A stretch of DNA of 64,000 nt, from NCBI GenBank assembly GCA_021822495.1, contig JAKAQO010000006.1, forward strand, positions 20,092 to 84,091, in the 5' to 3' direction. Below the pieces are notes generated by a model. It worked only from the letters and a program-made list of their open reading frames with translations. It made no database searches and had not been told where the DNA came from. The stretch is from a bacterium. GTDB lineage: Bacteria > Elusimicrobiota > Elusimicrobia > UBA1565 > UBA9628. Shown here in pieces: positions 8,056 to 60,394 of this stretch; positions within the stretch are counted from its first letter, which is position 1; each line of letters opens with the position of its first letter. Made by a program: the position numbers and the translations under genes.

Positions 8056-8175
8056 GGAGTTTGACCCATTTTAAGGTATAATAATAAATTATTATATGCC
8101 TGAGCGCAAGTCCATCGTCTTTTGCCGGAATTGGGGACTGTCCCTCATTCTCTTTTCGCGAGAAGAGGCGGTTTA

Positions 8176-10227: not shown

Positions 10228-10243
10228 ATCGAGGAAACACACT

Positions 10244-11353: not shown

Positions 11354-11356
11354 TTA

Positions 11357-15991: not shown

Positions 15992-15992
15992 A

Positions 15993-17597: not shown

Positions 17598-17640
17598 TGC
17601 GGGAGAGGGTATAAGGCTTCGTTAATAAAGGAGAATGTTT

Positions 17641-18243: not shown

Positions 18244-18267
18244 TCTGGAAAGATAAAAGGATAGCCT

Positions 18268-18858: not shown

Positions 18859-18883
18859 GACGGTAGGGGCTCTTCCCAGCTAA

Positions 18884-20248: not shown

Positions 20249-20269
20249 AAAAAGAGGAGGAGAAATCTT

Positions 20270-35482: not shown

Positions 35483-35497
35483 ATTCGTTAAGACCTT

Positions 35498-37120: not shown

Positions 37121-37872
37121 TAGCTGATTCTCCTATGGCTGAGTTTCTGGGCCGTTAAATAAAGGAAGATGAAGATAAACGAGGCGAAATAAAGCAGGTC
37201 CCGCGTATCCAAGACGCCTTTGCCGAGCGTCTGCATGTGAGAATCAAGACCGATGAAATCGAGAATTCCCGAAAGCCCTGCGGGAAGAAAGATGGCGAAC
37301 TTGCCAATGACGACAAAGCTAAACCCGATCAAAAACGCCGTGATAAAAGACACAATTTGGTTTTTGCTGAAAGAAGAAGTGTAGAGCCCCGCCGCCCCGA
37401 TCAAAAGGCCTTCAAAAATGAGGGCCAGCAATGTTCCCATGGATTCGCCCCAATCTAAATGAGCTGGAGGGGCGACCAAAAATGCCAGACAAATGGCGAA
37501 AAACAAAAGCGCTGCGATGACCAACGCGTAAAGGGCGGCAAAGCCGAGATATTTTCCCAAAACGATGTCCCAGTCTTCCAGGGGAAATGTCGCCAGGGTC
37601 TCAAAGGTTCCGGATTTAAGTTCTTCCGACATGAGGCCCATGGTCAGCGCCGGAACGAAAAAAGAAAGGATGATGGGCTCAAAATCAATGAGAGTTTTAA
37701 TGGTCGCTTGTCCAACCAGAAACAGGGGCGCCATGAATAAATATCCGGTTAAAAGATAAAAGACAAAAAGAGCGACGTAGGTGGACGGCGATTCCAGAGC
37801 GACGCGAAGGCCTTTGTGCGCGAGGGCCTTAACGGCATGAGCTTGAAACAGCGGTTCTTCTTTGGTTTTCAT
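37120..37872 (-). CDS. ABC-2 type transporter permease (GldF-like)
   Basis: 250 aa with about 6 TM helices, located between the ATPase and the GldG-like gene. Confidence 0.75.
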   Translation of the reverse strand: MKTKEEPLFQAHAVKALAHKGLRVALESPSTYVALFVFYLLTGYLFMAPLFLVGQATIKTLIDFEPIILSFFVPALTMGLMSEELKSGTFETLATFPLEDWDIVLGKYLGFAALYALVIAALLFFAICLAFLVAPPAHLDWGESMGTLLALIFEGLLIGAAGLYTSSFSKNQIVSFITAFLIGFSFVVIGKFAIFLPAGLSGILDFIGLDSHMQTLGKGVLDTRDLLYFASFIFIFLYLTAQKLSHRRIS

Positions 37873-37877
37873 GGCGA

Positions 37878-38810
37878 TTAGTTTTGGGTCAAGTTCCTGA
37901 ATACCTCTTCCAAATCTTGACGGTCTTTTCTTAGTTCCAGAATCGGCCAGCGCTTTTCGACGGCCAAGTTAAAGAGGTCTTCTCTTACGTCGGTTTTGGC
38001 CGAGGCGTCAAAATAAAATCCCGGTTCTTTTGGGTTTCTGCTTGCTTCCTCGGCTGATAAAATTCCCGGCAGTTTTCTTAAGGAAGATAAAATCTCGCCA
38101 ACAGGTCCTTTAAGGGAAACAAAAAATCTAATTTGGGAAGCGTGTCCGCCGGAGCTGATTTCTTCGGAACTCCCTTCCGCGACCAGGCGCCCGTTATTAA
38201 TAATAACGAGCTTGTCGCAAAGAACTTTCGCTTCGGAAAGAATGTGGGTTGAAAAAAGAACGGTTTTTTCCCGTCCCAATTCGCGGATTAGATCTCGCAC
38301 TTCATGGACTTGATTGGGGTCCAGGCCCGAGGTGGGTTCATCGAGAATTAAAACTTCCGGATCGTGGAGAATCGCTTGCGCGAGCCCCACGCGCTGGCGA
38401 AAGCCCTTGGATAGTTCCCCAATTTTTCTTCCCACGGCGGTCTTGAGCCCGCAGGCCTTGACGGCGTAGGCGATGCGCTCGCGCTTTTTCTCGCCGGAAA
38501 TACCCCGAAGATGAGCGGCAAGCTCTAAAGTTTCCGCGACTTCCAAATCTTCATAAAGAGGATTATTTTCAGGCAGATATCCCAAATGGCGCCGGGCCTC
38601 CATCGGGTTTTCCGCGACATCTAAATCCAAAATCCTTGCGCTTCCGCCGTCAAAGGGGAAAAAGGATGTCAAGAGGCGCATGGTGGTGGTTTTCCCCGCG
38701 CCGTTGGGGCCGAGAAAGCCGACAATACGGCCCTGCTCGACTTTGAAACTTAAATCGTCTACAGCGACTCTTTCGCCGAATTTCTTTTTTAAATGGATCG
38801 CTTCAATCAT
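37878..38810 (-). CDS. ABC transporter ATP-binding protein (GldA-like)
   Basis: 310 aa. Walker A GPNGAGKTT, signature LSKGFRQR and Walker B LILDEPTSGLD. Confidence 0.9.
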   Translation of the reverse strand: MIEAIHLKKKFGERVAVDDLSFKVEQGRIVGFLGPNGAGKTTTMRLLTSFFPFDGGSARILDLDVAENPMEARRHLGYLPENNPLYEDLEVAETLELAAHLRGISGEKKRERIAYAVKACGLKTAVGRKIGELSKGFRQRVGLAQAILHDPEVLILDEPTSGLDPNQVHEVRDLIRELGREKTVLFSTHILSEAKVLCDKLVIINNGRLVAEGSSEEISSGGHASQIRFFVSLKGPVGEILSSLRKLPGILSAEEASRNPKEPGFYFDASAKTDVREDLFNLAVEKRWPILELRKDRQDLEEVFRNLTQN

Positions 38811-38926: not shown

Positions 38927-40570
38927 ATGAAATATATCAACCTGATTTTTTTATTGATTGCGTTTAACCTCGGGGTTTACTTTTTTTTAAGCTCGAATTT
39001 TGTCAATCCGGATGGAATTGGATACGTTTCTTATCTCCCGACGCTCCTGATGGGAAGGACGTTTAACTTTTTTCCGTTCTATCATTTTTTTCATTTACAG
39101 GTTCCAGATTCCATTACCGCTTTAGGATGGCCGGCCAATATTTGGTCTTTTGGCGCCGCGTTTTTATGGTCGCCGATTTATTGGACGGGGAAACTTGGTC
39201 AAATCATCGCCGGGCAAAGAATGATTCCTTTTAATGCGATGGATATGGCCCTGGTTAATTTTTCCAGTATGCTCTTGGGGCTTGGGGCGTTTTGGTTTAT
39301 GGTGGACAGTTCACGGAGATTGAATTTGCCTGGAAGGAAAATAGCCTCCTTAGCGGCCTTTTTGGGAACTCCGCTTTTCTTTTACGCTTTCATGGCGGGA
39401 ACGACTTCTCATGCCGCCAGCGCTTTTATGACGGGCGGAGTGGTTTGGTTTTGGATCTCAACCCGCGAAGAGAGAGGCTTTCTTCGCTGGCTTTGTTTGG
39501 GAGTTCTTTGCGGAATTGCGGCGATGGTTCGCCCTCAGGAGGGTTTGGTTTTGATTCTTCCCTTGTGGGATATCGCGCGGAGGAGGGAAGAAGAAATCTC
39601 TGGCCTTGCGTTTAAGGCGGTTGGCGGCGTTTTTCTTGGTTTCACCTTCGGGTTTTTCCCCCAAGCCTTGATTTGGAAAATAATATATGGATCTTTTTTT
39701 CACGCGCCCAGCGCTTTTAATCTGAGATGGAGTTATTTCGCCTTGCCGGAGGTTTTGTTTTCGTCCTTTCACGGATTGCTTACTTGGACGCCGATTTTTC
39801 TTCTCTCCGCGATGGGGCTTGTTTGGGATATAGCGGGTGACGGCGGTCCGCTTTTGGCTTTTCTTTCCGCCCAGATATTTCTCAACAGCTTTAGCTTGGC
39901 CTGGTGGGAGGGATTTTCTTTTGGGCTGAGACAGATGACGGGGACCGCCGTCGTTGTCTCTCTGGGGATAGGTTTTTTTCTAAAAATGGCTGATGAAAGG
40001 TTTAAGGGAAATCTTCCGCGTCTATTGGCACGCCTGGGAATTGCGTTATGCGTTTTATGGACATTGTTACTCTCTCTCAATGTGGTAGTGGGAAATTTGC
40101 AGCTTCTTTTTTATGTTTCTCCCGCTTCCTTGGCCGCCTTGTCCTGGAAATGGGGAAATCTGTTTGAAGGGCTTCGCGCAAAAGGAGCGGGATTCTCCCA
40201 GCCTTTTTCTTCTCTATTCTTAATTTTGCTGTTCGTTGAGGCGATAGTATTGTCGATTTTATTGGGGTTTAGGAATTTTCTTGAAAAAAATAAGATTCCC
40301 TTGATTTTGGGAGGAATGGTTTTCCTCTTGTTCGCTTCCGATTTTTCCATCGCCCTTGCGAGGCTTTACGCCCAGCCGCCCGCCTATAGCCTCGCCTTAA
40401 ATGAAAAAGAACTGGATTCATTTTTTAAAAGCCAGGTTGATTATGTCTATGGGAAGTATTATCTTGCTCGCGGGATAAATGAAGAAGCCATGGAATATCG
40501 CCAAAAGGCATTAAGCGCCCTCCCGAAAAGCCCTTTGACCGATCTCTTTCGCCAGAAAATCCGACAATAA
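38927..40570 (+). CDS. Polytopic membrane protein, possible GT-C-fold (ArnT/PMT-like) glycosyltransferase
   Basis: 547 aa with many TM helices. It has an acidic motif in the first predicted loop (NPDGIGY) and a C-terminal soluble helical tail. The family was not verified. Confidence 0.4.
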   Translation: MKYINLIFLLIAFNLGVYFFLSSNFVNPDGIGYVSYLPTLLMGRTFNFFPFYHFFHLQVPDSITALGWPANIWSFGAAFLWSPIYWTGKLGQIIAGQRMIPFNAMDMALVNFSSMLLGLGAFWFMVDSSRRLNLPGRKIASLAAFLGTPLFFYAFMAGTTSHAASAFMTGGVVWFWISTREERGFLRWLCLGVLCGIAAMVRPQEGLVLILPLWDIARRREEEISGLAFKAVGGVFLGFTFGFFPQALIWKIIYGSFFHAPSAFNLRWSYFALPEVLFSSFHGLLTWTPIFLLSAMGLVWDIAGDGGPLLAFLSAQIFLNSFSLAWWEGFSFGLRQMTGTAVVVSLGIGFFLKMADERFKGNLPRLLARLGIALCVLWTLLLSLNVVVGNLQLLFYVSPASLAALSWKWGNLFEGLRAKGAGFSQPFSSLFLILLFVEAIVLSILLGFRNFLEKNKIPLILGGMVFLLFASDFSIALARLYAQPPAYSLALNEKELDSFFKSQVDYVYGKYYLARGINEEAMEYRQKALSALPKSPLTDLFRQKIRQ

Positions 40571-40624: not shown

Positions 40625-40653
40625 TTGACAATGTTGGGGGGCGGGGCTAGACT
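40625..40653 (+). promoter_or_regulatory. Candidate sigma70-type promoter TTGACA-N17-TAGACT for the nine-gene envelope operon
   Basis: TTGACA 40625-40630, a 17-nt spacer and TAGACT 40648-40653. An AAAGGGGGGA SD lies before TTG 40674. Confidence 0.5.
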
Positions 40654-40673
40654 ATTTGTAAAAGGGGGGAACG

Positions 40674-43600
40674 TTGAATCTGTTCTTGTCAGTTGTTTTT
40701 TGGGGACATTGCGCTTATGCCGCGGGGGTTCCAGCCGAAATGGCTCCCCATACGCAAGCCCAGGAGCTTTATCTCTCAGCCGGGCATTTTTTTCAAACCC
40801 AGGATTACGCCCATTCGGCCGATCAATACCAGGAATTCTTAAAACGCGATCGCAATCAGCCGGGAGAGCTTGAGGCCCAAATGATGCTTGCGGAAAGCCT
40901 TTACCGCGAAGGCGTCGCGCAGTTGTCCTTATCTCCCAAGCGCGCGGCTAAAATTCTCAAACAAGCCAAACAGGCGTACAAAAAAGTCGCGCGCGACGCC
41001 CCCAGCGGAGACTATCTGGCGGAAAGCGCTCGCTTTAGACTCGGAGAAATGGCGTTTAATCTCGGAGAATATGACGAGGCTATTTCGGATATGGAGCGTT
41101 TGGTTTCCGATTATCCCTCAGGAACTCTTCGGGGAGAAGCTCGTTTGCTTGAGGCCGAGGCTTTGATGTCTCAAAAACAATTTTCCAAGGCGGAAACCCT
41201 GCTTGAGGAAGCTTTAAAAGAACAGCCGGCCTATGCCCATGATCCTCGGCTTAAGTTGGCGCGCGGCATTACTCTCTTTGAAATTGGAAATCCCTCCGCC
41301 GCTCTCTCGTCTTTGAGCGGCCTTGATTCTTCCTTGGCTCTTTTATATTCCGCTCGGGCCAATATGGATTTGGGAAAGCCCTTGATCGCGGTTGAGAATC
41401 TCAAAACGCTGATAGAAAAATATCCCGATGACCCTTCCGTCGAAACCAGCCGATATCTTGTGGGAGAAGCTTTTTTTGAAGCGAAGGATTACACCTCGGC
41501 CCTGCAAGTTTTTAATCAGTTCTTGATGGATTTCCCGCATAGTTCCCTTCGCGGGGCGGCGACCTATAAAATGGGGCTGTGCAGCTACGAACTTAAGGAT
41601 TATATGGCGGCGCGAGGAGATTTCGAGTCGGTCGAGCAGATGAACCCTCCCGGAGAATTTGCCGAGCCCAGTCTCTACATGATGGGGGAATCTTTCTTAA
41701 AGGAAGGAAACTATACAAAAGCCGGCTTTGACTATTCCGATTTGTCCTCGGCTTACGCCAATACCTTGGCCGGAACCGCTAAATTCAAACTCGGATGGAC
41801 CCAATACAAACGTCAGGAATATCCGGAAGCGGGGGTGACCTTGAATTCATTTATCGTTCAATATTCTTCCCATCCGCTGGTGCCGGCGGCGGCTTATTTA
41901 GATGGAAACGTCCTTTTAAGCGAGAGCAAATACCGTCAAGCGGCCCACGCCTATCAAGAAACCCTGGATTTGGCGAGTTCTAGCGCTAATCCCTATCGAA
42001 ATTTAATTTGGAACCCAGCCTTGGCGATGCTCAGCCGCTCGTATTTAGTAGCCGGTGAATATGGACATTTGATTTCGGGATACCAGTATATCTTGAAAGA
42101 AAACGCGCCGACCCAGGACCCTTGGCATGCGGCCGCTCTCCTTTATATCGCGGAGGGATATTATCGGCAGGGTCTTTACGATCAGGCCTTGGCGATTGAT
42201 CATGAAATTATTCACTCTTATCCCGCAACTCCGGAATCCATCGTCGCCAAGGACGGGATCGCGTGGTGTCTATTTAAACAAGGGCATTTTGAGGAGTCCT
42301 ACCAAGAGCGCGTAAAACTGGAAGCCTTAAAAAACGCTTCCGCGATTGCCCCTTCAAAGACGGTCGTTGTGGATGAAAATCCGGGAGCGGATTTATTTGT
42401 CAACAATCAATACGCCGAAGCCGTAACGCTTTTTAATCAGAAAAAATACGCCGACGCCTTGGACGCTTTTCAGCGATTTGAAAAAGATTATGCTCAAGAC
42501 CCCAGAGCGGCGGACGCCGCTTTGGAAGAAGGTTGGTGCTATTACCGCCTCAACTATTACGGGGATGCCGTCAAGACCTGGGAGAAGGTCGAGTCAAGCT
42601 ATGCTTCGTCTGAGGCCGCTAAATCCGCCGCGTGGGCGACAGCCGACACTTATTTTAGAGCCGCTCAATATGACAAAGCCGTTCTGGCCTATCAGCATAT
42701 TCTTGAGGCTTATCCGGATGATGCCGCCTCTTCCTATGCGCGGCTTCGCATCGCCCAAAGCTACTACAACGCAAAAAATATCCCGCAGGCGATTGCCGCC
42801 TTTACGGATGTTTTGAATAATTCTCCCGGCGAAAAAGAAGAAAAAGAGGTTTTGGATTACTTGACCCAGATGCTTTATCAGCCGGAGTCTAAAGACGCGG
42901 CCTTAAAGGCTCTTGAATCTTTGGCGGCTTCTCAAGTCTCAAACCCCATAGGAGCGAAGGCGGAACTGGGTCTGGGGCTTTATTTTTTCGAGACTGGCGA
43001 TTACACGAGCGCGGTTCAAAATCTGGAGGAAGCCATTCCAAATCTTTCGCAGGATAAAGACATTCGCAACGCCCAGTACGATCTTGCCCAGTCCTATTAC
43101 TCGCTTAAACGCTATGAGGACGCCCAGCGGGCTTATGAACGCTTTACGGAAAATTATCCAGACGACCCGCGCTTTAGGGCGGCTTTATTTCGGATGGGGA
43201 CTTCGGCTTTTAATCTCAAGAATTTTGAAAAAGCCGCTTCGGCTTTTCATCAGCTGGCGGCGCAATATCCCAAGTCTCACTACGCCGCTTTGGCCCTTTA
43301 TAATTCCTCCTTGGCTTATCGAAAATTGGGGGACTGGGAAGCGGCGGCCTTGGCGCTGAAAAATTACATCAACCTTTATCCTGCCCAGGCTCAAAAGTCG
43401 AGCGCGGCCTCGGAACTGGCCTCCGTCTATGAACAGGAAAGAGACTATGCGAAGGCGATTAAGGATTTGAAATCGGTCAGAAGTTCGATGAAAAGCGATG
43501 ACCCCGCGTTTTTAGCGACCAGTCTTGAGATCGCGAAAGATGACAAGGCGATGGGAGATGAGGCGGATTCTTTAAAGGAATATCAGGCGATTGAGGCTAG

Positions 43601-43856
43601 TCCCTTGAAAGATAATTCTTATCGCCTGAACGCCTTGGCGGATTTGGGCCGCTATTATGAAGATCAAAAGAATTGGGCTCTTGCGGCAAAAACCTATGAC
43701 GAGTTGGCTTCAAGCGCTTCCGACCCAAGCTGGCGGGATCCCGCTCGGGCCCGGGCGGAAGCGGATCGTGAAAAGATTTCCAAGACCGCTTCGGCCAATT
43801 CCACTCAAAATGAAGTTCAGAATTCTTCCGCGCCGGCGGGAGGAGGGGCGCAATGA
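40674..43856 (+). CDS. Giant TPR protein built of YbgF/CpoB-like repeat units
   Basis: 1060 aa with a short signal-like N-terminus. Throughout its length there are units of the form Y..A...F..G.Y..A...F..F...YP.S (e.g. FNLGEYDEAISDMERLVSDYPSG, YYSLKRYEDAQRAYERFTENYPDDP). Confidence 0.8.
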   Translation: MNLFLSVVFWGHCAYAAGVPAEMAPHTQAQELYLSAGHFFQTQDYAHSADQYQEFLKRDRNQPGELEAQMMLAESLYREGVAQLSLSPKRAAKILKQAKQAYKKVARDAPSGDYLAESARFRLGEMAFNLGEYDEAISDMERLVSDYPSGTLRGEARLLEAEALMSQKQFSKAETLLEEALKEQPAYAHDPRLKLARGITLFEIGNPSAALSSLSGLDSSLALLYSARANMDLGKPLIAVENLKTLIEKYPDDPSVETSRYLVGEAFFEAKDYTSALQVFNQFLMDFPHSSLRGAATYKMGLCSYELKDYMAARGDFESVEQMNPPGEFAEPSLYMMGESFLKEGNYTKAGFDYSDLSSAYANTLAGTAKFKLGWTQYKRQEYPEAGVTLNSFIVQYSSHPLVPAAAYLDGNVLLSESKYRQAAHAYQETLDLASSSANPYRNLIWNPALAMLSRSYLVAGEYGHLISGYQYILKENAPTQDPWHAAALLYIAEGYYRQGLYDQALAIDHEIIHSYPATPESIVAKDGIAWCLFKQGHFEESYQERVKLEALKNASAIAPSKTVVVDENPGADLFVNNQYAEAVTLFNQKKYADALDAFQRFEKDYAQDPRAADAALEEGWCYYRLNYYGDAVKTWEKVESSYASSEAAKSAAWATADTYFRAAQYDKAVLAYQHILEAYPDDAASSYARLRIAQSYYNAKNIPQAIAAFTDVLNNSPGEKEEKEVLDYLTQMLYQPESKDAALKALESLAASQVSNPIGAKAELGLGLYFFETGDYTSAVQNLEEAIPNLSQDKDIRNAQYDLAQSYYSLKRYEDAQRAYERFTENYPDDPRFRAALFRMGTSAFNLKNFEKAASAFHQLAAQYPKSHYAALALYNSSLAYRKLGDWEAAALALKNYINLYPAQAQKSSAASELASVYEQERDYAKAIKDLKSVRSSMKSDDPAFLATSLEIAKDDKAMGDEADSLKEYQAIEASPLKDNSYRLNALADLGRYYEDQKNWALAAKTYDELASSASDPSWRDPARARAEADREKISKTASANSTQNEVQNSSAPAGGGAQ

Positions 43857-46800
43857 TGAAGGAACGGAATTTTATTTGCGGGAAAAAAGTCTTGTCCGCT
43901 TTTCTTTTTTTGACGGCTTTTTTGAGCGGGAATATTTCCAGGGCGGCTTCTCCATCTGCCCCGCCAAGCCTCATTTTTTCTCCGGCGGGAAACGGAACCC
44001 GCAAAACGCTTTCCTTTGTCGTCAACCTTCCGGAAACGGCTGAGGTGTCGAGTTGGCGTTTTGAGATTCGAGAAAAAGGGCTTAAGGACGCGCCTGGAGC
44101 CTTGGTTAAAGCGTTTTCCGGGGATGGGCGTCCGCCGCGAAAGATTGTCTGGGACGGAAAAGACACCCAAAATCGCGTGGTTGAGGATGGAACGTATTAT
44201 TATTCTTTGAGTCTTCAAACTCCTGCTGGTAACCAAGCCGCGATACGACCATCCCCCGTGGTCGTCGACCGAATTCCCCCGACTATTTCAGCTAAAGTCG
44301 ATCCGAAGATTTTTTCTCCTAACGGCCTTAAGCCGGAAACGGTTTTCACACTAAAGGCTTCCGATCAATACGGAATTTATGAATGGCTGCTTGAGATTAA
44401 GGGTTCCGACGGGGTTCCGGTCAAGTCCTGGATGGGGAAGGGAATGCCGCCCTCGGCTTTGCGTTGGGATGGAAGGGGAGATTTTAACGAAGACGTTCCA
44501 AATGGAGCTTACACGTTTCAGCTCACCGTCGAAAACCTAGCCTCAAACCGCACGGTGACGCCTCCCCAAACGGTCACGATTAAAAGACAAGGCGTAGTTT
44601 CAACCGTGGGGGTCACGCCGGATGTTTTTTCTCCGCATAAAGAAAAGCCGATTGCGAGTTTTGATATCACGGGCGGAGATCCTTCTTCTATCGAACGCTG
44701 GGACCTGAAAATTATCAATCAAGGCGGAAGACCCATCTTCTCATTTAAAGGAAACGGGGCGCCGCCCGCGCGGCTTGATTGGGACGGAGATATTTCCAAG
44801 GATAAGATCGCGCCTGATGGGGAATATCAAGTCATTTTGTATGAAACCGATAACGCCGGAAATACCGCAGCCTCCGCGCCAGAGCCCCTCTATGTGGACA
44901 CCAAGGCGCCGTTACTTGTAGCGCGTTTAGAGCCGGATTTGCTGAGTCCCGGAAAACATCGCGCGAATTCCCAAGGACTTTTTAAGCTGAGGGCCGAGAG
45001 CCGTTATCCGTTTAAGTGGGCCCTTAGAATTTATACTGACGTCGGCGAACCCGTTCGGACTTGGAGCGGAAAAATGGGGTCGAAGGTTCCGCCGCAAATT
45101 TTATGGCATGGAAACAACGATTCGGGACAAATCATCACGGATGGAACCTATTCCTATTCTCTTTGGGCTTCCGATATCGCCGGAAATGAGGGAGAAACCC
45201 CGCGCCAAAAATTCGTGGTGAATACGACTCCGCCGGCTTTATCGGTTTCGACCGATCATTCTCTTTTCTCCCCCAATGGCGATCCGGCTTTGAGCCATGT
45301 CGTTTTTAGTTTGAGCGCGCAAGACGCCAGCCCCTTCGCGAATTGGGCTCTTTTAATTTACAATTCCGATCAAAAACTCGTGCGGCAGTTTACCGGCTCT
45401 CCCCTCAACATTCCAGCCAGCGTAACCTGGAACGGAAAAAATCAAGATCGCCAACCTCTTCCAGACGGAACTTATTCCTATGTCTTGAAGGCGAAAGACG
45501 TTGCGGGAAATTCTTCCGAGACTTCTCCCCAGGACATCGTCATAGGAGCGACTAAACCCATTCCTAAAGTTGTCTCTGCTTTAAACGCTATTTCGCCCAA
45601 TGCCGACGGGTTTAAAGATACGACGGACTTTCACCTCAGCGTCAAGTCTTTCAACCCGGTTAAGAAATGGTCGCTTCAAATTTTTGACGACAACAAGGTC
45701 GCTCGCCGGACCTTTGAAGGCCAGGGAGACGTTCCGGGAACTATTCAGTGGGGAGGGGAGGGAGACGATCAAAAGATTCTTCCGGACGGAAAATATTTCT
45801 ATCAACTCAAGGTTGTCGACGCCGCCGGAAATACCAGTAAAACCCGTCTTAAGCCGATTTTGATTAATACGACGCCGCCGGAAATTAAAATTACGGCGGA
45901 CCCGGCGCTTTTTTCGCCCAAACCCACGGCGCCGCATTTTAGCTCCTCGACGATGCTGGTCTTAAGTTATCAAGACGTCAGTCCCATCATGACTTGGAAG
46001 GTGATCATCCAGGACCCAATGAAAAATAGCGTCCGAGTTTTTTCGGGGACGTCTCCCTTGCCCATGTCGATTTCCTGGTACGGGCGATCCAAATCCGGAA
46101 AAATTTTGCCCGATGGGCCCTACACCTACACTCTTTTTGCGGAAGACGATGTGGGCAACAAATCAACGACCTCGGAACAGATCTTGCGCTTGGATGCCTC
46201 TTCCCCTCAAGTGAGTCTAAGCGCGAACCCCAAGCTGTTTTCTCCTGGAACCGGTTCCGAGAAAAACGAGACCACCTTGCTTCTGGGTTACAAAGCCAAG
46301 GCCGATATCTCTAAATGGAAACTGTCCATTGACTTAAAAAAGGGCGAGGCCGCGCGCGTTTTTTCAGGGCTGGGGCGTCCGCCTCAAAACCTTCCCTGGG
46401 ACGGGAAAAACGCTTATGGGCGCATTCTTCCCGATGGAACCTATGACGCATTTTTAAAATTGATCGATGAGGTGGGAAATATAGGACAAAGTCCCGTCGC
46501 TCAAATCACCATCGACACTTCTAAACCGGTTGCGACCGTCGTCGCCCAAACCGATCAACTGGAAGATTTAAGCGTGCCTCTGACAGTGACCAAGGACGCG
46601 GAAAAAGATATCGTCATCTCGTTAGCCAGCGAGGTTTTATTTGACAGCGGAAAATCGACCTTAAAAACAGAGGCCAGCAATACGCTTTTGAGGGCGGCCT
46701 ATTTAATCAAACGCTATCCCCATCGCGCTGTTTTAATTAATGGCTACACCGACAACGTGCCGATTCATGACGCCGCGTTCAAAGACAATCGCGATCTTTC

Positions 46801-46999
46801 AAAAGCGCGGGCCAAAGCTGTGATGAAGTTTTTGACTTTTAAGGCGAATATTCCCGCTTCCCGCATGAAGGCCCAGGGGTTTGGGGCCAAGAACCCCATC
46901 GCCTCCAATGACGATGCGGAAGGCCGGCAAAAAAATCGTCGGGTGGAAATTGTTTTGACCAGTAATCAGTCCAATGCCGCGAAGGGAGACAATCCATGA
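43853..46999 (+). CDS. Exported protein with eight FlgD-Ig-like modules and a C-terminal OmpA/Pal-type peptidoglycan-binding domain
   Basis: 1048 aa with a signal peptide. FSP-type module starts lie at aa 42, 154, 259, 364, 472, 580, 687 and 796, a period of 105-112 aa. Each module ends with ..WDG.....G..(L/V)PDG.Y.Y.L...D.AGN. The C-terminus LFDSGKSTL...INGYTDNVPI...NRRVEIVL is OmpA-like. Confidence 0.8.
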   Translation: MMKERNFICGKKVLSAFLFLTAFLSGNISRAASPSAPPSLIFSPAGNGTRKTLSFVVNLPETAEVSSWRFEIREKGLKDAPGALVKAFSGDGRPPRKIVWDGKDTQNRVVEDGTYYYSLSLQTPAGNQAAIRPSPVVVDRIPPTISAKVDPKIFSPNGLKPETVFTLKASDQYGIYEWLLEIKGSDGVPVKSWMGKGMPPSALRWDGRGDFNEDVPNGAYTFQLTVENLASNRTVTPPQTVTIKRQGVVSTVGVTPDVFSPHKEKPIASFDITGGDPSSIERWDLKIINQGGRPIFSFKGNGAPPARLDWDGDISKDKIAPDGEYQVILYETDNAGNTAASAPEPLYVDTKAPLLVARLEPDLLSPGKHRANSQGLFKLRAESRYPFKWALRIYTDVGEPVRTWSGKMGSKVPPQILWHGNNDSGQIITDGTYSYSLWASDIAGNEGETPRQKFVVNTTPPALSVSTDHSLFSPNGDPALSHVVFSLSAQDASPFANWALLIYNSDQKLVRQFTGSPLNIPASVTWNGKNQDRQPLPDGTYSYVLKAKDVAGNSSETSPQDIVIGATKPIPKVVSALNAISPNADGFKDTTDFHLSVKSFNPVKKWSLQIFDDNKVARRTFEGQGDVPGTIQWGGEGDDQKILPDGKYFYQLKVVDAAGNTSKTRLKPILINTTPPEIKITADPALFSPKPTAPHFSSSTMLVLSYQDVSPIMTWKVIIQDPMKNSVRVFSGTSPLPMSISWYGRSKSGKILPDGPYTYTLFAEDDVGNKSTTSEQILRLDASSPQVSLSANPKLFSPGTGSEKNETTLLLGYKAKADISKWKLSIDLKKGEAARVFSGLGRPPQNLPWDGKNAYGRILPDGTYDAFLKLIDEVGNIGQSPVAQITIDTSKPVATVVAQTDQLEDLSVPLTVTKDAEKDIVISLASEVLFDSGKSTLKTEASNTLLRAAYLIKRYPHRAVLINGYTDNVPIHDAAFKDNRDLSKARAKAVMKFLTFKANIPASRMKAQGFGAKNPIASNDDAEGRQKNRRVEIVLTSNQSNAAKGDNP
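43964..46546 (+). repeat. Eight tandem ~105-112-aa FlgD-Ig-like protein modules (divergent at the DNA level)
   Basis: The periodicity was derived by counting the positions of the recurring (F/L/I)SP and WDG...PDG.Y motifs in the translation. Confidence 0.7.
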
Positions 47000-47610
47000 T
47001 TCATATTAATTTTTTAGAAATTTTAAAGACAAGTTTTACCTTGGTCATACTCCTTTTCTGCTCTTTAGTGACCATGACCTTTGCCATTGAGAGATGGTGG
47101 TATTACCGTTCGGTCCGGATTGACGTCGAAAAATTCATGACGGCGATCAGAGAATTTTTGGAAGCCCATAAACACGCGGAAGCCTTAAACCTCGCCTCCG
47201 GTTCTCCGGGACCGATAGCCGCGATTGTCCGCGTCGCTCTTCTTAACCGCAGCCGCCCCAAAAGCGAAGTCGCCGCTCTGCTGTCTGCCGCGCAGATTGA
47301 CGAGAGGGGGAAACTTGAACGCTATCTTGGAATTTTAGGAACGATGGGAAATACGGCGCCCTTTATCGGTCTTTTTGGAACGGTGGTCGGCATTATCAAG
47401 GCTTTCCATGATTTAGCTCTTTCCGGTTCCGGCGGGCCGTCGGTCGTGGCAGCGGGAATCGCGGAAGCCCTGGTGGCCACCGCCAGCGGTCTTGCGGTCG
47501 CCATTCCAGCGGCGATGCTCTACAACTATTTCGTCAAAAAGGTCAAGGATTTGTCGTCGGATATGGAAGCTTCTTCCATCCGGATTTTGGTTTATTTGGG
47601 GCTTAGCTAA
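46996..47610 (+). CDS. MotA/TolQ/ExbB proton channel family protein
   Basis: 204 aa. Motif APFIGLFGTVVGIIKAF...GIAEALVATASGL. Confidence 0.85.
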   Translation: MIHINFLEILKTSFTLVILLFCSLVTMTFAIERWWYYRSVRIDVEKFMTAIREFLEAHKHAEALNLASGSPGPIAAIVRVALLNRSRPKSEVAALLSAAQIDERGKLERYLGILGTMGNTAPFIGLFGTVVGIIKAFHDLALSGSGGPSVVAAGIAEALVATASGLAVAIPAAMLYNYFVKKVKDLSSDMEASSIRILVYLGLS

Positions 47611-48026
47611 TGCAAACGGGGTCCTCGAACAACTCGATTATCACCGATATCAACGTGACGCCTTTGGTGGATGTTTGCCTGGTTTTGGTGATTATTTTCA
47701 TGGTGGTTTCCCCGCTGGCGATGCAGGCTTCAATTGAAGTGGCCTCAACCCGGGTCGGAGCTCCCAAGGCGCAAGCGGCTCTGACCAAAAATGTCGATGT
47801 TGTTTTAGACGCCCAGGGGAAGGTGACAGTGAATGGAAATCCGGTCGCTTGGGCGAATCTGCCCCAGGCCCTTAAAAAAGCGATTTCGCGCAGTCAAGAC
47901 CGCATGGTGGGCCTTAAGGCTTCTCCGAATGCTCCCTTAGGACGGGTAGTTGAAATTTTAGATGATTCCAAACAAAACGGAGCTAAAAAAGTGGCTCTCA
48001 TTAATCCAAAAGAAGGGAAAAGTTAA
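47610..48026 (+). CDS. ExbD/TolR family protein (paralog 1)
   Basis: 138 aa. TM segment with a conserved Asp: DINVTPLVDVCLVLVIIFMV. Confidence 0.85.
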   Translation: MQTGSSNNSIITDINVTPLVDVCLVLVIIFMVVSPLAMQASIEVASTRVGAPKAQAALTKNVDVVLDAQGKVTVNGNPVAWANLPQALKKAISRSQDRMVGLKASPNAPLGRVVEILDDSKQNGAKKVALINPKEGKS

Positions 48027-48445
48027 TGGCAATAGGGCAGGGAAAATCCGGGGAACCCATCACCTCAATCAATATCACGCCCTTGGTGGATGTGAGTCTT
48101 GTTTTAGTCATTATCTTTATGGTGGCCGCCCCGCTTTTGACTCAGTCCATTTTACCGGTTAAACTCCCCAAAGCCGTGACGGATGAGGGAAAAGAAAGAG
48201 AAAACGTTACGATTACGATTTCAAGAGACGGACAGTGGGCTTTAAACGCCGATCCGACGACTCCGGAAACCTTGCCTTCAGTTTTGCCCGCGCTTTTGTC
48301 CAAAAGCCGGGATAAATATGTGATTATCAGGGCGGACGCCGATTCCCCTTATTCTTATACCTTGGAAGCTCTTAAAATCGCGAAAGCGGCGGGAGCCAGA
48401 GATTATGCCGTGGCGACGGTTGAAAAAAAGAGAGGCGCTCCATGA
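48026..48445 (+). CDS. ExbD/TolR family protein (paralog 2)
   Basis: 139 aa. TM segment with a conserved Asp: SINITPLVDVSLVLVIIFMV. Confidence 0.85.
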   Translation: MAIGQGKSGEPITSINITPLVDVSLVLVIIFMVAAPLLTQSILPVKLPKAVTDEGKERENVTITISRDGQWALNADPTTPETLPSVLPALLSKSRDKYVIIRADADSPYSYTLEALKIAKAAGARDYAVATVEKKRGAP

Positions 48446-49563
48446 CTCGGGACGCGACTCGGATTGAAACCTCGGCTGGTGTGGCCGCCGCCATTCACGC
48501 TTCTCTTTTTGGCCTTTATCTTTTGCTTAAAGTAACCGAGCCGGCCCAGGAAACGGTGAAACTGACCCGCGTTGATTTTATCGATGAAATTCCCAAAGCC
48601 GCGGCTTCCGCTATTTCCAGCCCCGGACGGCTTGAGCGCGCGCCGAAAAGTTTCAAGGATTTCCTTCACATGGCGCTTCCTTCTTTTCATAGGCCGAGTC
48701 CTTCCCAGCCGAAACTCGCGGAAATGCAAAACGAGCCGACTCCCAATGCGCCGCAAATGAGGTCGGCGTCTCCCCAGATTCAGCTGAAAACCAGCGCTCA
48801 TCCCTTGAATAAAAATTTCCGCTTTAGGCCGACTCATCTCAACGCGGCGGATTCGACAAGACTCTCCGATGTGTCCAATCCTCAAATCGCGCCGCAGTCT
48901 CCCCAGGATATGCCAAACGTCAAGCCCATTACGCTCGAGGCTGTTGGGCGCGTCAAGGCTTCGGCCCGGATTCATTTTAATTCGGCGGCCCATTTTAAGG
49001 CTTCCGGTCAAATGCGGGATTTGCCCCAAGAAAATTTAGCGGCTACGGGACCGACGTCTTTAGAGGACGCGCAATCTCCCCCCATTCGCTTAAACGCGAG
49101 TTATCACGGATCCAAAAACGCGGCTTTGCCGACAGGAGGGGAACTTCCCATCGGATATGAAAAAGGAATCTCGCTCAAAGAGGGCGCTGTCCATCCGGCG
49201 GGGGCGAATTTGCCCCAGGTTTCCGCAGCCTCTGTTCAAGTCAAAACCGGAAAACTTAAAAGCGTGAAGCATAAGGGCATGGAAATTAGCGGTCCCTTGG
49301 CGGATCGAAAAATTTTAAAGGCGGCGGCGCCCAAATATCCCGTGTGGGCTAAAAATCAGGGGGTTGAGGCGGATGTGGTCGTTCGTTTCTACGTTTCCGC
49401 CGACGGCCAGGTTCTCGACCGCATGATTATCGAGAGAACTTCCGGTTACCGGAGACTTGATGAACTGTGCAAAAAGACGCTTAAGAAAATGCTTTTTGCC
49501 CCGCTTGAATCGGGCGATCAAGTGGAATGGGGTTTTATTACGTTTCATTTTAAGCTCAAATGA
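48442..49563 (+). CDS. TonB/TolA-like protein with a long low-complexity linker and a TonB_C-like C-terminal domain
   Basis: 373 aa with an N-terminal TM segment. The C-terminus KYPVWAKNQGVEADVVVRFYVSADGQVLDRMIIERTSGYRRLDELCKKTLKKMLFAP matches the TonB C-terminal pattern. Confidence 0.7.
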   Translation: MTRDATRIETSAGVAAAIHASLFGLYLLLKVTEPAQETVKLTRVDFIDEIPKAAASAISSPGRLERAPKSFKDFLHMALPSFHRPSPSQPKLAEMQNEPTPNAPQMRSASPQIQLKTSAHPLNKNFRFRPTHLNAADSTRLSDVSNPQIAPQSPQDMPNVKPITLEAVGRVKASARIHFNSAAHFKASGQMRDLPQENLAATGPTSLEDAQSPPIRLNASYHGSKNAALPTGGELPIGYEKGISLKEGAVHPAGANLPQVSAASVQVKTGKLKSVKHKGMEISGPLADRKILKAAAPKYPVWAKNQGVEADVVVRFYVSADGQVLDRMIIERTSGYRRLDELCKKTLKKMLFAPLESGDQVEWGFITFHFKLK

Positions 49564-50171
49564 GTGAAATCATGGATGAGGAAAAACAGGCTTTGCCCTC
49601 AAACCGGCGGCGCCATTATTTTATAGACACGGAAATTCAACTCCCCTTAACCTTGGGGCTGATTTTAATCGCGACGGTGGAGGGCGTTTTTGTCGGATGG
49701 GGCCTCAGCCGAATAATCCACTTTGCGTTTGATTGGCAAAGCGGCAGGCAAATCGCGGAGTTCTTCGCTTTTCTTATCGCGACATTCTTGCCGATGGTCG
49801 TCATCAATTTTTGGCTGAGCGCCTGGTTTACTCATCGGATGATTGGGCCGCTTTCCCGCGCTAGGAAAGCGCTTTCTTCCATCGTGGATGGAAACCTTGA
49901 GTGCGAGATTATTCCTCGGGAAGGCGATTTTCTCCGCCATTATTTGGAGGACGTCAACGCGGTGCTTAAGACTTTAAAGCGCCTTATTTACCGGGACTAT
50001 CAATATGTTCAGGAAACCGTCGAGATTTTAAATCAGTGCCGGGATAAAATAGCTGAGAGCGGCTTGCCCGAAGAAGCCAAAAAAGAGTTTCAAAAACTTC
50101 TGTCTCAGGCTAAAAGCCGCCTAAGTATTGTCAATCTCCATTTCGCGCGTCATCGAGGGGATAAACCATGA
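49560..50171 (+). CDS. 2-TM membrane protein with a HAMP-like linker and coiled coil, no recognisable output domain
   Basis: 203 aa. Two hydrophobic helices are followed by HRMIGPLSRARKALSSIVDGNLECEI (HAMP-like). I saw no kinase or MCP motifs. Confidence 0.5.
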   Translation: MSEIMDEEKQALPSNRRRHYFIDTEIQLPLTLGLILIATVEGVFVGWGLSRIIHFAFDWQSGRQIAEFFAFLIATFLPMVVINFWLSAWFTHRMIGPLSRARKALSSIVDGNLECEIIPREGDFLRHYLEDVNAVLKTLKRLIYRDYQYVQETVEILNQCRDKIAESGLPEEAKKEFQKLLSQAKSRLSIVNLHFARHRGDKP

Positions 50172-50548
50172 AAACCAGAGATGAGTCCGTTTTGATTGTC
50201 GACGATGATGATGGAATGCGGGAACTGGCCGAAATGATGTGCAAACAAATGGGGTTTAAGACCGTTTCTTCTGCGGATACCATCTCCGCCCGGAAATATC
50301 TTGAAGAGAAAATTCCCCGTTTAATTCTTCTCGATATCATGATGCCAGACGGAAACGGAATTGAATTTTGTCAATGGATGCGCTCGCAAGAGGAACTCAA
50401 AAATGTTTCAATTATCGTAACCAGCGCTTTAAAAGAAGAAGAGACGATTCAAGACGCTTTTAAAGTTGGCGCTAACGATTTCTTGTCAAAACCTTTTGAG
50501 GTTGCGATTTTTAAAGAGAAGCTGGAGCGCTGGGTGAACACGAAATAA
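50168..50548 (+). CDS. Stand-alone response regulator receiver domain (CheY-like)
   Basis: 126 aa. It has the acidic pocket IVDDDD, the phospho-acceptor context LILLDIMMPDGNG, and the T/S and K motifs VTSA and LSKPF. Confidence 0.85.
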   Translation: MKTRDESVLIVDDDDGMRELAEMMCKQMGFKTVSSADTISARKYLEEKIPRLILLDIMMPDGNGIEFCQWMRSQEELKNVSIIVTSALKEEETIQDAFKVGANDFLSKPFEVAIFKEKLERWVNTK

Positions 50549-51528
50549 TGAAAAAGAAAACCCTTTTATTGGCCTTTTTTCTTTTGACGGGAGTTCTTTT
50601 TTCTTTTGCCGATTCTCAAAATGGGGCGCAAGGAGAAAATGGACAAGGGGTTTTGCCCGAGGTTCTCATCCAGGCCGAACACAATAAGCCCTTGCCCTTG
50701 ACCAAACCGCCTTTGAATTTTGAGGTAAAGGAAGATCCACCCATTGAGACAATTCTTAAAAAGACGGACCGTTCTTTAATGAACCGTCTGCCTTCCCAGA
50801 TATTGAAATCCAATGTCTTTAAGCCTGAAATCTCGATTAGCTCCAAAGCGGTGACGCCGTTGTATCCGTGGATTATCCGTCCTTGGACGGGAGAGCCTAT
50901 TCACGTCTTCCATCCGCAGGAGATTCTCACCGGCATCCACGCCTTTAAAGATGATCGCAATGAACGCAAGAAGGCGGTTTGGGAGCTGGATGTGGTTGAC
51001 GGCGCGGGAAAATCCATCCAGCATTTTTCAGGCTCCGGGCTTGTGCCCAAAAGACTTCCCTTCGATGGAAAAGGAAAAGATGGGAAATGGGTGGAGGTGG
51101 GAGAGACCTATATGGGAGTCCTTAAAAATACCGATTCTAAAGGCCGCATCCACACGGCTTACGGGCGTCCTTTTAAAATTGCGGGTTTAAGCCTTAAAAA
51201 TCCCTCCAGTTTTGTCATTGATTTGGATGCCGGGGTTCTTTTTTCCACATCTTCGGCGACTTTGCGGCTCTCTTCTTTCGGCGCAGAGCTTATCAAGGAC
51301 GCTTCCCAACTCTTGCAAAGGTATTACCCCGGTTTTAGCGTCAAGGTTTCCTTGTTGACGGAGAGGCTCAATCCCTTGGAACTAAAAGAAGCCGTTTCCC
51401 TGTGCGCGGATAAAATCGCAAAAAGACTCATTATTGCGCCGACGTTCATTCAAAAGACCTGGAGGCGTCAAGACGCGGGGGCCGATGGAACGCTTACGAT
51501 TTCCGTTCAATCTCAAACGCGCCCTTAA
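50548..51528 (+). CDS. Exported protein with one FlgD-Ig-like module and a degenerate OmpA-like C-terminus
   Basis: 326 aa with a signal peptide. WELDVVDGAGKSIQHFSGSGLVPKRLPFDGKGKDGKWVEVGETYMGVL matches the module of the 1048-aa protein. It is followed by VLFSTSSATL..., which resembles the OmpA-domain start. Confidence 0.45.
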   Translation: MKKKTLLLAFFLLTGVLFSFADSQNGAQGENGQGVLPEVLIQAEHNKPLPLTKPPLNFEVKEDPPIETILKKTDRSLMNRLPSQILKSNVFKPEISISSKAVTPLYPWIIRPWTGEPIHVFHPQEILTGIHAFKDDRNERKKAVWELDVVDGAGKSIQHFSGSGLVPKRLPFDGKGKDGKWVEVGETYMGVLKNTDSKGRIHTAYGRPFKIAGLSLKNPSSFVIDLDAGVLFSTSSATLRLSSFGAELIKDASQLLQRYYPGFSVKVSLLTERLNPLELKEAVSLCADKIAKRLIIAPTFIQKTWRRQDAGADGTLTISVQSQTRP

Positions 51529-56182: not shown

Positions 56183-56712
56183 GTTTGACTCGCTTCCGTT
56201 TCTTTGTTTTTTGATTTCTTAATCTTTTTGGTTTTCTTCGCGGTTTTTTCGGCCTTGGACTTCTCCTTGAGATTTAATTTTTGGAGCTCCGCGATTTTTC
56301 CTTCCGCCTTCTTAACGTCCTTTAGGAGCGGGCTTGAGGGATGAGATTTTTCAAACGAACTTAAGTCGGCTTGGGCTTCCTTGAGTTTTCCGGAAACGAC
56401 TTCCTTGACGGCGGCAGCGAATTCTTTTTTTTCGTTAAGAATCTCTTCTTTTTGGGAGATATTTGATTTTGCCCAGGTTGGCTGGTTGATATCGGCGAGA
56501 TTTTGTTTGCTTCCCCTGACCGCGGCGACCGCAACCAGGTTGTCTCTGTTCTCGTAATTTTGGCTGACCGAGGATTCGGAGAGGCTTTGTTCCAATTGAG
56601 AGAACCAATTCATCAACATGGTTGTGGTTGATTCCGGCTTCTTTGGTTCATCCGCTTTAAGCGAACCGGCGGCAAGAATGCCGCATGCCATTGCGATAAT
56701 TATTTTTTTCAT
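56167..56712 (-). CDS. Hypothetical secreted coiled-coil protein with a Lys-rich tail
   Basis: 181 aa with a signal peptide. The C-terminus is KSKAEKTAKKTKKIKKSKNKE. Its ATG overlaps the stop codon of the upstream giant gene by 4 nt. Confidence 0.45.
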   Translation of the reverse strand: MKKIIIAMACGILAAGSLKADEPKKPESTTTMLMNWFSQLEQSLSESSVSQNYENRDNLVAVAAVRGSKQNLADINQPTWAKSNISQKEEILNEKKEFAAAVKEVVSGKLKEAQADLSSFEKSHPSSPLLKDVKKAEGKIAELQKLNLKEKSKAEKTAKKTKKIKKSKNKETEASQTQANP

Positions 56713-60203: not shown

Positions 60204-60394
60204 GATAAAATGAGCATATCAATTTTTTAAGCGCTCTAAACCATTGTTTAAGTCAAAAAGAGTATAACAGAGGAAATGGGTTTTTTCAATAGAAATTTAA
60301 AAAATGTCAAGGACTTCAATAAATTAGTTTTCCTCTTGTCAAAAAAGCTAGAATATTGCGAATTCTGAATAAACAGGGAATAGAGGGAACGAAT

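Follow-up and report, generated by a model that had tools for sequence, protein, structure and literature searches.

The question raised by this locus is whether an envelope motor that is encoded together with giant periplasmic proteins and a signalling pair belongs to one of the known machines of the Tol/Ton class, or stands apart from them. The stretch of DNA analyzed here (the window; 64,000 nt of contig JAKAQO010000006.1 from an Elusimicrobiota genome, GCA_021822495.1) carries nine open reading frames (ORFs) on the plus strand at 40674-51528, whose products we call P1 to P9 (Table 1). A first-pass annotation, made from the nucleotide sequence, had likened them to an expanded and permuted envelope motor of the Tol-Pal or Agl-Glt type. 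We conclude that: i) the nine genes form a real operon, conserved across Elusimicrobiota, a phylum that has received little study, ii) in its workings the operon is akin to Tol-Pal and the Glt core, without forming part of either system, and iii) the machine is specific to Elusimicrobiota and neighbouring candidate phyla. To the further proposal that the operon encodes a self-contained, signal-modulated periplasmic force machine of the Tol/Ton/Agl class, driven by the proton-motive force (PMF) and acting on its own peptidoglycan-anchored partners, we give about even weight.

The nine window proteins were mapped on 20 related loci. All nine families were co-located in L001-L003, L006-L011, L016, L019 and L020, with identities from 96% down to ~27%, and at least seven Elusimicrobiota lineages have the complete set (25-96% identity). 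The order of the core genes, namely the tetratricopeptide repeat (TPR) protein P1, the 8xIg-OmpA protein P2, ExbB, ExbD, ExbD, TonB_C and P9, is invariant. The window order of the nine genes is seen in L001-L003 and L006-L009 (73-96% identity). The order is P1-P2-P3-P4-P5-P6-P9-P7-P8 in L010, L011, L016 and L019 (27-75% identity), P7(-P8) stands ahead of P1 in L012 and L013 (36-67% identity), and P7-P8 is placed between exbB (P3) and the first exbD (P4) in L020 (27-58% identity). The P7-P8 pair is hence found at four operon positions, i.e., following P6 or P9, ahead of P1, and between exbB and exbD, which argues for selection for its linkage to the motor rather than for chance adjacency. The HAMP-receiver pair is a mobile cassette kept within the operon by selection. 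These results bear out the earlier view of one conserved functional unit, since the gene content is kept across Elusimicrobiota; the nine-gene order, proposed then as a check, is fixed in its core but not in the placement of P7-P8.

The domain content of the nine proteins was evaluated by Pfam and NCBIfam hidden Markov model (HMM) searches, which directly confirmed seven of the nine; P7 and P9 were assigned at the level of family or structure. P3 matched MotA_ExbB (PF01618) with 112 bits, and scored 129.4 bits on the TolQ model TIGR02796 (cut-off 221) and 98.6 bits on the ExbB model (cut-off 206). Among solved structures TolQ is the nearest to P3 and ExbB the second. P4 and P5, which are 36% identical to each other, matched ExbD (PF02472) with 87 and 97 bits, respectively, and the alignment shows that both retain the trans-pore Asp in a PLVDV motif. 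On the TolR model TIGR02801 they reached 74.1 and 81.6 bits, both under the cut-off of 127.3, and on the ExbD equivalog 57-63 bits, against a cut-off of 153. Thus, for P3, P4 and P5 the TolQ/TolR models outscore the ExbB/ExbD models. In five distant loci P4 and P5 fall into two orthologous groups, with the P4 type always first and the P5 type always second, which suggests that the ExbD duplication is old and that both copies are needed. By its sequence P3 is a TolQ/ExbB-type proton channel subunit; by analogy with known motors, it is presumed to form the pentamer of a 5:2 motor in which P4 and P5 are the presumed heterodimer partners. More than 100 clusters of P3 homologs have at least 51% identity, and the named ones are almost all from Elusimicrobiota, Endomicrobiales included, with one from Candidatus Firestonebacteria.

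P6 has ~10 cytoplasmic residues, followed from about residue 11 by a single transmembrane (TM) helix with a His (His19) that is invariant in the ortholog alignment, and by a linker with 7-15% Pro that contains conserved linear motifs. Residues 296-372 are a TonB C-terminal domain (PF03544, E = 3e-9; TIGR01352, 45.9 bits, passing the cut-off of 27.1), and the closest solved relatives of this domain are the TonB C-terminal domains 6fip and 6i97. No match of P6 to TolA_full (TIGR02794) was obtained; only TonB_C domain models match. The HMM searches thus confirmed what had been proposed for these four proteins: an ExbB/TolQ-like P3, P4 and P5 of the ExbD/TolR family with their TM Asp, and a TonB_C-type P6.

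Since Pfam, NCBIfam and the PDB all relate the C-terminal domain of P6 to TonB, and this domain sits on a TM-anchored protein with a linker as in TonB itself, P3 to P6 could be an ordinary Ton system that energises TonB-dependent transporters encoded elsewhere, the TPR and OmpA proteins being accessory or unrelated. Clusters of the exbB-exbD-exbD-tonB-TPR type are common in Bacteroidota, and the arrangement of one ExbB, two ExbD, TonB and TPR is widespread, as this reading would have it. TPR-tolQ-tolR-tolR clusters are also noted in a recent survey (PMC12204202). A lookalike has been described in Fibrobacter succinogenes, with OmpA (FSU_2396), TPR (2397-98), ExbB (2400), ExbD (2401-02) and TonB (2403) genes; proteomics tied FSU_2396-2403 to growth on cellulose, and the cluster was interpreted as serving cellodextrin uptake (PMC6851124). 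Compared by gene content alone, it shares with the operon an OmpA-family protein, large TPR proteins, one ExbB, two ExbD and TonB, but its description mentions neither a HAMP/receiver pair nor a P9-like gene. In our window, however, where all ORFs of at least 150 aa in the 64 kb were surveyed, no Plug or TonB_dep_Rec protein was found among those ORFs, as the first-pass annotation had stated, and the flanks of the related loci contain no TonB-dependent transporter either. Furthermore, P3 is under the ExbB and P4/P5 are under the ExbD cut-off, and all three score higher on TolQ/TolR; seven partners that are not transporters have been inherited along with the motor across deep divergences, P7-P8 even lying inside exbB-exbD in one lineage; and a second candidate motor-transducer set shares the window (see below). 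An ordinary Ton system is therefore unlikely in our judgement.

The periplasmic proteins point to partners of the motor within the operon. P1 reached 273 bits on the YbgF model TIGR02795 over eight stretches, matched BamD (TIGR03302) in eight stretches and many TPR families of Pfam, and a self-built HMM located ~6 full and 4 partial three-TPR units across residues 38-1017. P1 and ten orthologs have AxA-type Sec signal peptides and no conserved Cys; hence, P1 is periplasmic and not a lipoprotein, and is a probable scaffold there. The earlier assignment to CpoB/YbgF-type TPR units stands for YbgF, although TIGR02795 is passed only through summing the eight repeat stretches. It does not stand for CpoB: on the CpoB equivalog NF008068 P1 scored 64 bits (cut-off 383) with only the TPR part (142-259) matched, and a 1060-aa non-lipoprotein of ~4 times the CpoB length, lacking a conserved lipidation Cys, is not a CpoB ortholog.

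P2 has a Sec-type signal (…LSGNISRA/AS) and no lipobox, so that, contrary to what a Pal analogue would suggest, it is not a Pal-type lipoprotein. Pfam searches gave FlgD_ig and Big/Big_13 matches, and an OmpA domain at 929-1029 with 67 bits (cut-off 27.2). Upon iteration, a self-built HMM detected exactly eight tandem Ig-like modules of ~105 aa each at 35-892, and the number is eight in 7/7 orthologs examined (38-88% identity). This constancy suggests that the length of P2, or each of its modules, matters. All eight P2 orthologs aligned retain the peptidoglycan-binding signature G[YH][TA]D...N..LS..RA...NRRVEI. The eight modules and the peptidoglycan-binding OmpA domain that the first-pass annotation had seen are thus supported by HMM. 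A one-to-one pairing of eight TPR units of P1 with the eight Ig modules of P2 was considered and rejected, as it is contradicted by the ~6 full and 4 partial units of P1.

P9 was described earlier as a small FlgD-Ig/OmpA-like protein. Neither Pfam nor NCBIfam matched the window copy, and the assignment was reached by other means: residues 143-201 match the P2-module HMM (E = 1.2e-10), tblastn finds P9 similar to P2 820-984, and the AlphaFold2 (AF2) model searched with Foldseek gives matches to the FlgD Ig and to OmpA_C/MotB_C with a probability of ~1. When eight P9 orthologs were aligned with the eight of P2, the fold-defining positions were kept and the peptidoglycan-binding residues were gone in every P9. 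The alignment makes P9 a paralog of the C-terminal end of P2 (its eighth Ig module and OmpA domain) in which peptidoglycan binding appears to have been lost; its OmpA-like domain is predicted to be peptidoglycan-blind. Ahead of the P2-type Ig module and the OmpA-like domain, a linker of ~80 aa is predicted to be disordered. The mature N-terminus, directly after the signal peptide, reads LPEVLIQAEH...KPPL, and the block G.LP[ED]V[LVI]I[EQK][AG][EK]...KPPL is the most conserved stretch of the otherwise predicted-disordered N-terminal third. In this block an acidic residue leads into a strand with alternating hydrophobic positions, which gives it a presumed likeness to a TonB box or to the TolB N-terminus.

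These features make the likeness to Tol-Pal considerable. P3-P5, for which the TolQ and TolR models score best, would make up a 5:2 motor of that type; it is combined with a transducer, P6, that has a TM His and a C-terminal domain of the TonB/TolA fold, with an OmpA-like peptidoglycan-binding partner, P2, and with the TPR repeats of P1, whose best model is YbgF. In P9, which is soluble and periplasmic, the disordered N-terminal strand motif could be the pulled element, like that of TolB: the first 12 residues of TolB are disordered and pair with TolA through beta-strand augmentation, in the manner of a TonB box with TonB (PMC7391070). It could then be argued that the operon is the true Tol-Pal of the lineage in rearranged form, with P2 as Pal, P1 as CpoB and P9 in place of TolB, serving outer-membrane constriction at division; its phylum-wide, housekeeping-like conservation would fit. 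We consider this improbable. Every equivalog cut-off was missed, and no TolB beta-propeller (PF07676, PF04052) was found among the nine proteins, in agreement with the earlier statement, or among the other window ORFs of at least 150 aa. Unlike Tol-Pal, the operon has a second ExbD/TolR paralog, P9 (an Ig module with a degenerate OmpA-like domain) in place of the propeller, a non-lipidated 1048-aa wall binder with eight Ig modules where Pal is a small lipoprotein, and an additional HAMP/DHp-like protein with a receiver. P1 and P2 carry Sec signals and are not lipoproteins, whereas TolB-containing tol-pal loci with a lipoprotein CpoB are reported for Elusimicrobia in the survey (PMC12204202).

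The window also contains a second minimal motor-transducer cluster, which had been overlooked. It spans 6309-8055 on the minus strand, with overlapping junctions, and consists of a TolQ-like protein that scores higher on TolQ than P3 does (139 bits), a TolR-like protein, and a TonB_2/TolA-like protein with a weak TolA_full match and S-x3-H in its TM helix. The cluster has no neighbouring TolB, Pal or CpoB gene, and may be the split tolQRA of the genome, or its Ton system. The TolQ-like protein of this cluster is 40% identical to P3, while the best 120 P3 homologs listed are all at least 51% identical to P3, which suggests that the two are old paralogs. Together with the TolB loci of Elusimicrobia in the survey (PMC12204202), the second TolQRA-like cluster argues that the operon is a paralogous extra system rather than a rearranged Tol-Pal. 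The term "permuted Tol-Pal" is therefore not borne out.

The last two proteins, P7 and P8, constitute the signalling pair. The first-pass annotation had called P7 a HAMP-only membrane protein. The window copy has no Pfam match, HAMP (PF00672) included. In its family, PF00672 matched 4/10 close homologs and 24/32 wider members (best E-value, 2e-12), and the alignment has the HAMP pattern GPL...GNL...D.L....N. The HAMP assignment thus stood at the family level; "only" did not, since a DHp-like hairpin follows. P7 is laid out as two TM helices separated by a loop of ~4 residues, a diverged HAMP at ~90-145 and the C-terminal DHp-like hairpin, and ends with an invariant AKSRLSI[VI]N.HF. In the AF2 model (predicted local distance difference test score, pLDDT, 69) there are four long helices, with TM1 first, TM2 continuing as HAMP AS1, AS2 continuing as a long helix, and one more helix at the end. 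The top Foldseek matches are HAMP-DHp fusions (Af1503 HAMP fusions superpose) and CpxA, with probabilities of 0.92-0.99. P7 matched neither HATPase_c nor HisKA, and at the H-box position after the HAMP an invariant R145-D146 is followed by Y, H or R, with no conserved His. In its modelled fold P7 looks like the HAMP-DHp stalk of a histidine kinase without the catalytic domain. The small-HAMP family of P7 comprises 2488 representatives at E <= 1e-3. Homologs of P7 and of P9 proper are few, and the named ones are all from metagenome-assembled genomes of Elusimicrobiota.

P8 has Response_reg (PF00072) alone, with 90.8 bits (cut-off 30.2), which confirms it as a receiver-only protein. The acidic pocket DDD(12-14), the phospho-acceptor D56, T84/S85 and K107 are kept in its orthologs, and its gene always adjoins that of P7. 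In two Elusimicrobiota genomes the P7-P8 pair was seen alone (L014:9938-10857 and L015:21-703), with no TPR or ExbB gene within 10 kb.

A receiver next to a motor with one TolQ-like and two distinct TolR-like subunits recalls the gliding machinery of the Agl-Glt type. The operon shares with it a TonB_C inner-membrane protein with a long linker, a periplasmic TPR protein of >1000 aa that is likely to be a scaffold, and, with the Agl-Glt core complex, the grouping of the genes as a single unit (Luciano et al. 2011, PMC3169522). These parallel parts, including receiver-type control (PMC3169522; PMC11761067), would suit a surface-motility or adhesion machine akin to the Agl-Glt core (aglRQS with gltD, E, G and C), in which a periplasmic shaft moves adhesins under the steering of the receiver. 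A GldA/F/G-like ATP-binding cassette (ABC) transporter encoded divergently upstream, here and in close relatives, and weak matches to the GltC and AgmX/PglI tail models point the same way. The matches, however, are far under the cut-offs. P6 scored 18.6 bits on the AgmX/PglI tail model NF033768 (cut-off 40), and GltC (NF033756) was the only Glt-specific model to match, with 21.7 against 450 bits, the range of Glt models in NCBIfam not having been checked. Unlike GltG/GltJ, P6 has ~10 cytoplasmic residues and neither an FHA nor a GYF domain. The operon encodes no outer-membrane barrel, adhesin or vWA adhesin, or cytoplasmic platform, and thus lacks the outer-membrane parts GltA/B/H/K/CglB; it carries Ig-OmpA proteins and a HAMP/receiver pair, which Glt lacks, and it differs in its taxonomic range (Elusimicrobiota and Firestonebacteria). 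The ABC neighbour is not kept in distant lineages, and the Glt core is by itself insufficient for motility (PMC3169522). A machine of this kind is thus very unlikely, and "Agl-Glt-type" holds for the parallel parts but not for the identity of the system.

The Glt "core complex" is widespread, and its function is unknown outside gliders (PMC3169522). The survey describes TPR-TolQ-TolR-TolR-vWA "new force transducer" clusters in bacteria of the Planctomycetes-Verrucomicrobia-Chlamydiae (PVC) group, put forward as a new envelope system that runs on the PMF and whose function is unknown (PMC12204202); their transducer head is vWA instead of the TonB_C of the operon, and no Ig-OmpA protein or signalling pair is reported for them. 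The nearest described analogues, i.e., the Glt core complexes, the Fibrobacter cluster and the PVC clusters, are all of unknown mechanism. Beyond that survey (PMC12204202), we found no description of this gene combination, or of ExbB in Elusimicrobia.

We propose the following scheme for the self-contained force machine to which we gave about even weight. By analogy with known 5:2 motors, the P3 pentamer would enclose the P4/P5 heterodimer, and proton flow would energise P6 via its TM His. The TonB-like domain of P6 would capture the N-terminal strand of P9 by beta-strand augmentation, much as TolA captures TolB, rather than an outer-membrane transporter. The Ig and OmpA-like domains of P9 could bind the homologous end of P2, so that P9 would control, or be stripped from, the wall-anchored P2 chain. 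The TPR scaffold of P1 would organise this chain and may bind the linker motifs of P6, much as the TPR protein GltD is modelled by AlphaFold with a segment of GltG wrapped around it (PMC11761067). P8, once phosphorylated by a kinase encoded elsewhere, would dock on the DHp-like hairpin of P7, which in turn would gate the motor; since P7 has almost no periplasmic loop, it would act via its TM helices. The output would be the remodelling or positioning of a wall-anchored periplasmic scaffold, with envelope tethering, spacing or division-linked stabilisation as the most economical guess.

Several observations weigh against this proposal. All protein-protein contacts in the scheme are predictions drawn from analogy, and the operon encodes no outer-membrane component. 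The structural matches of the two divergent proteins have Foldseek E-values of 0.1-0.6 (P7) and 0.01-0.08 (P9), and the AF2 model of P9 is of low confidence, with a pLDDT of 52 overall (~80 for the Ig part). The likeness of the P9 motif to TonB and TolA boxes is a presumed one, judged against general consensus sequences. In addition, L018 (25-56% identity) has P1, the motor, P6 and a P9-like gene with no adjacent P2, P7 or P8, and the Firestonebacteria locus L017 (25-51% identity) groups only a P7-like HAMP gene, two FlgD-Ig genes, the TPR gene (P1) and ExbB.

The Firestonebacteria locus (L017:4393-10609, Candidatus Firestonebacteria, GCA_043822305.1) is a reduced relative of the operon, with no adjacent ExbD or TonB gene. 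It encodes a small HAMP protein, a 115-aa FlgD-Ig protein, a 409-aa fusion of UPF0164 and FlgD-Ig, a 1063-aa TPR protein and ExbB. The UPF0164 domain of the fusion is a protein family of Treponema, which we take to be a possible outer-membrane domain; if so, it would hint that FlgD-Ig partners can be outer-membrane-anchored in other phyla.

A bolder version of the scheme, which we regard as rather doubtful, makes the operon a third, independently assembled Tol/Ton-type class, in Elusimicrobiota and at least Firestonebacteria too, in which P6 pulls P9 as a decoy on or off a P2 "ruler" laid along P1, and a phospho-switch made up of P7, as a kinase-less HAMP-DHp pseudo-kinase, and its receiver P8 controls the motor. 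If true, it would be a non-homologous reinvention of the mobilisation-and-capture logic of Tol-Pal, and the first case of a Tol/Ton-class stator under direct control of the two-component type.

Motors of the Tol/Ton/Mot 5:2 type are increasingly recognised as general power units of envelope processes, and many such systems are still to be discovered according to the survey (PMC12204202). Here the likely substrates of the motor and its regulator are encoded alongside it, so that the motor-transducer, transducer-target and regulator-motor contacts can be directly predicted and tested. Three features have no described counterpart in Tol-Pal, Ton or Agl-Glt: the fixed eight-module length of the wall-anchored P2, a predicted peptidoglycan-blind paralog (P9) whose tip resembles a TonB box, and the presence, inside a motor operon, of a receiver and its kinase-less HAMP/DHp-like partner. 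The operon may bear on envelope upkeep in the deep-branching, ultra-small diderm Elusimicrobiota, and it widens the puzzle over the roles of the Glt-like "core complexes" and of the Fibrobacter OmpA-TPR-ExbBD-TonB cluster.

The layout of the operon was read directly from the window, and the coordinates of the nine ORFs were exactly those of the first-pass annotation. Five of the eight junctions are ATGA overlaps of 4 nt and three are TAATG overlaps of 1 nt, and purine-rich Shine-Dalgarno-like runs precede most of them. Overlap at all eight junctions, from which full translational coupling had been claimed, is found as stated, but in this genome only; relatives show gaps of 9-110 nt at some junctions. 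The single promoter-like site that had been noted, sigma-70-like with a 10/12 match, was found as well. It is the joint best site within 38.5-52.5 kb and occupies the sole intergenic gap; the region contains 15 such sites against 11.9 +/- 3.9 in shuffles, i.e., no excess. Near-identical copies of the 33-nt block CCCTTGACAATGT..GGGGGCGGGGCTAGACTAT lie 5' of the orthologous P1 gene in L006, L007 and L008, with unalignable flanks, and the conservation of this block supports the promoter better than its score does. The start codon of P1 is a TTG, five bases 3' of the Shine-Dalgarno sequence AAGGGGGG. No intrinsic terminator was found 3' of P9, where a convergent DedA-family gene ends 7 nt away. 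The composition gave no signal of foreign origin, with a GC content of 0.501 for the operon and 0.499 for the window. Between the promoter and the ribosome-binding site, an insertion of ~37 nt with an AAGCGC...GCGCTT hairpin is present in L001:1-60, L007:~890-940 and L008:~1050-1100. As a conserved element of the 5' untranslated region this hairpin was discarded: it folds no better than shuffles (z -1.7 to 0.0) and is missing from the window.

Table 1. Positions, in the window, of the operon, its promoter-like site, the second motor-transducer cluster and neighbouring genes
Feature	Coordinates	Strand	Remarks
Sigma-70-like promoter	40625-40653	+	TTGACA-N17-TAGACT
P1, TPR protein	40674-43856	+	1060 aa
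P2, 8xIg-OmpA protein	43853-46999	+	1048 aa
P3, TolQ/ExbB-type channel subunit	46996-47610	+	204 aa
P4, ExbD/TolR paralog 1	47610-48026	+	138 aa
P5, ExbD/TolR paralog 2	48026-48445	+	139 aa
P6, TonB/TolA-type transducer	48442-49563	+	373 aa
P7, HAMP + DHp-like inner-membrane protein (predicted)	49560-50171	+	203 aa
P8, stand-alone receiver	50168-50548	+	126 aa
P9, Ig + degenerate OmpA-like exported protein	50548-51528	+	326 aa
TonB_2/TolA-like protein	6309-7022	-	237 aa; second cluster
TolR-like protein	7019-7432	-	second cluster
TolQ-like protein	7429-8055	-	second cluster
Hopanoid/isoprenoid-like cluster	8122-16979	+	
Four envelope genes	17635-21319	+	
AsmA/YhdP/DUF748-family protein	21320-24211	-	963 aa
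Ankyrin/caspase protein	31265-32845	-	526 aa
GldA/GldF/GldG-like ABC set	34529-38810	-	
Polytopic membrane protein	38927-40570	+	547 aa
NHL/TPR protein	56709-60203	-	1164 aa
SMC	60356-63910	+	

The genes upstream of the operon were also inspected. The GldA/GldF/GldG-like set, divergent from the operon, comprises ABC_tran, an ABC-2 permease, ABC_transp_aux with DUF7088, and DUF4340. It was rejected as a part of the operon, which it neighbours only in close relatives; it is missing in L016, L019 and L020. The polytopic membrane protein, whose gene separates the ABC genes from the operon promoter, has no Pfam or NCBIfam match and is possibly a GT-C-like glycosyltransferase. Its gene is missing at that position in L006-L008, where the ABC-transporter gene abuts the promoter, and is thus a lineage-specific insertion.

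Other genes of the window were noted as well. The four plus-strand envelope genes encode an unknown 202-aa protein, an LpoB-like lipoprotein (PF13036), an unknown 454-aa protein and an LPP20-domain protein, and the AsmA/YhdP/DUF748-family protein is a candidate bridge-like lipid transporter to the outer membrane. The ankyrin/caspase protein combines ankyrin repeats with a caspase (Peptidase_C14) domain. The NHL/TPR protein has one or more NHL-repeat beta-propellers and C-terminal TPRs, and its gene is followed by that of SMC. The hopanoid/isoprenoid-like cluster encodes a squalene-hopene cyclase, a radical-SAM/DUF3463 protein that we take to be HpnH-like, an epimerase, a PNP_UDP_1 protein that we take to be HpnG-like, a polyprenyl synthetase, a DXP synthase and IspH/LytB; hopanoid synthesis in an Elusimicrobiota genome may merit attention.

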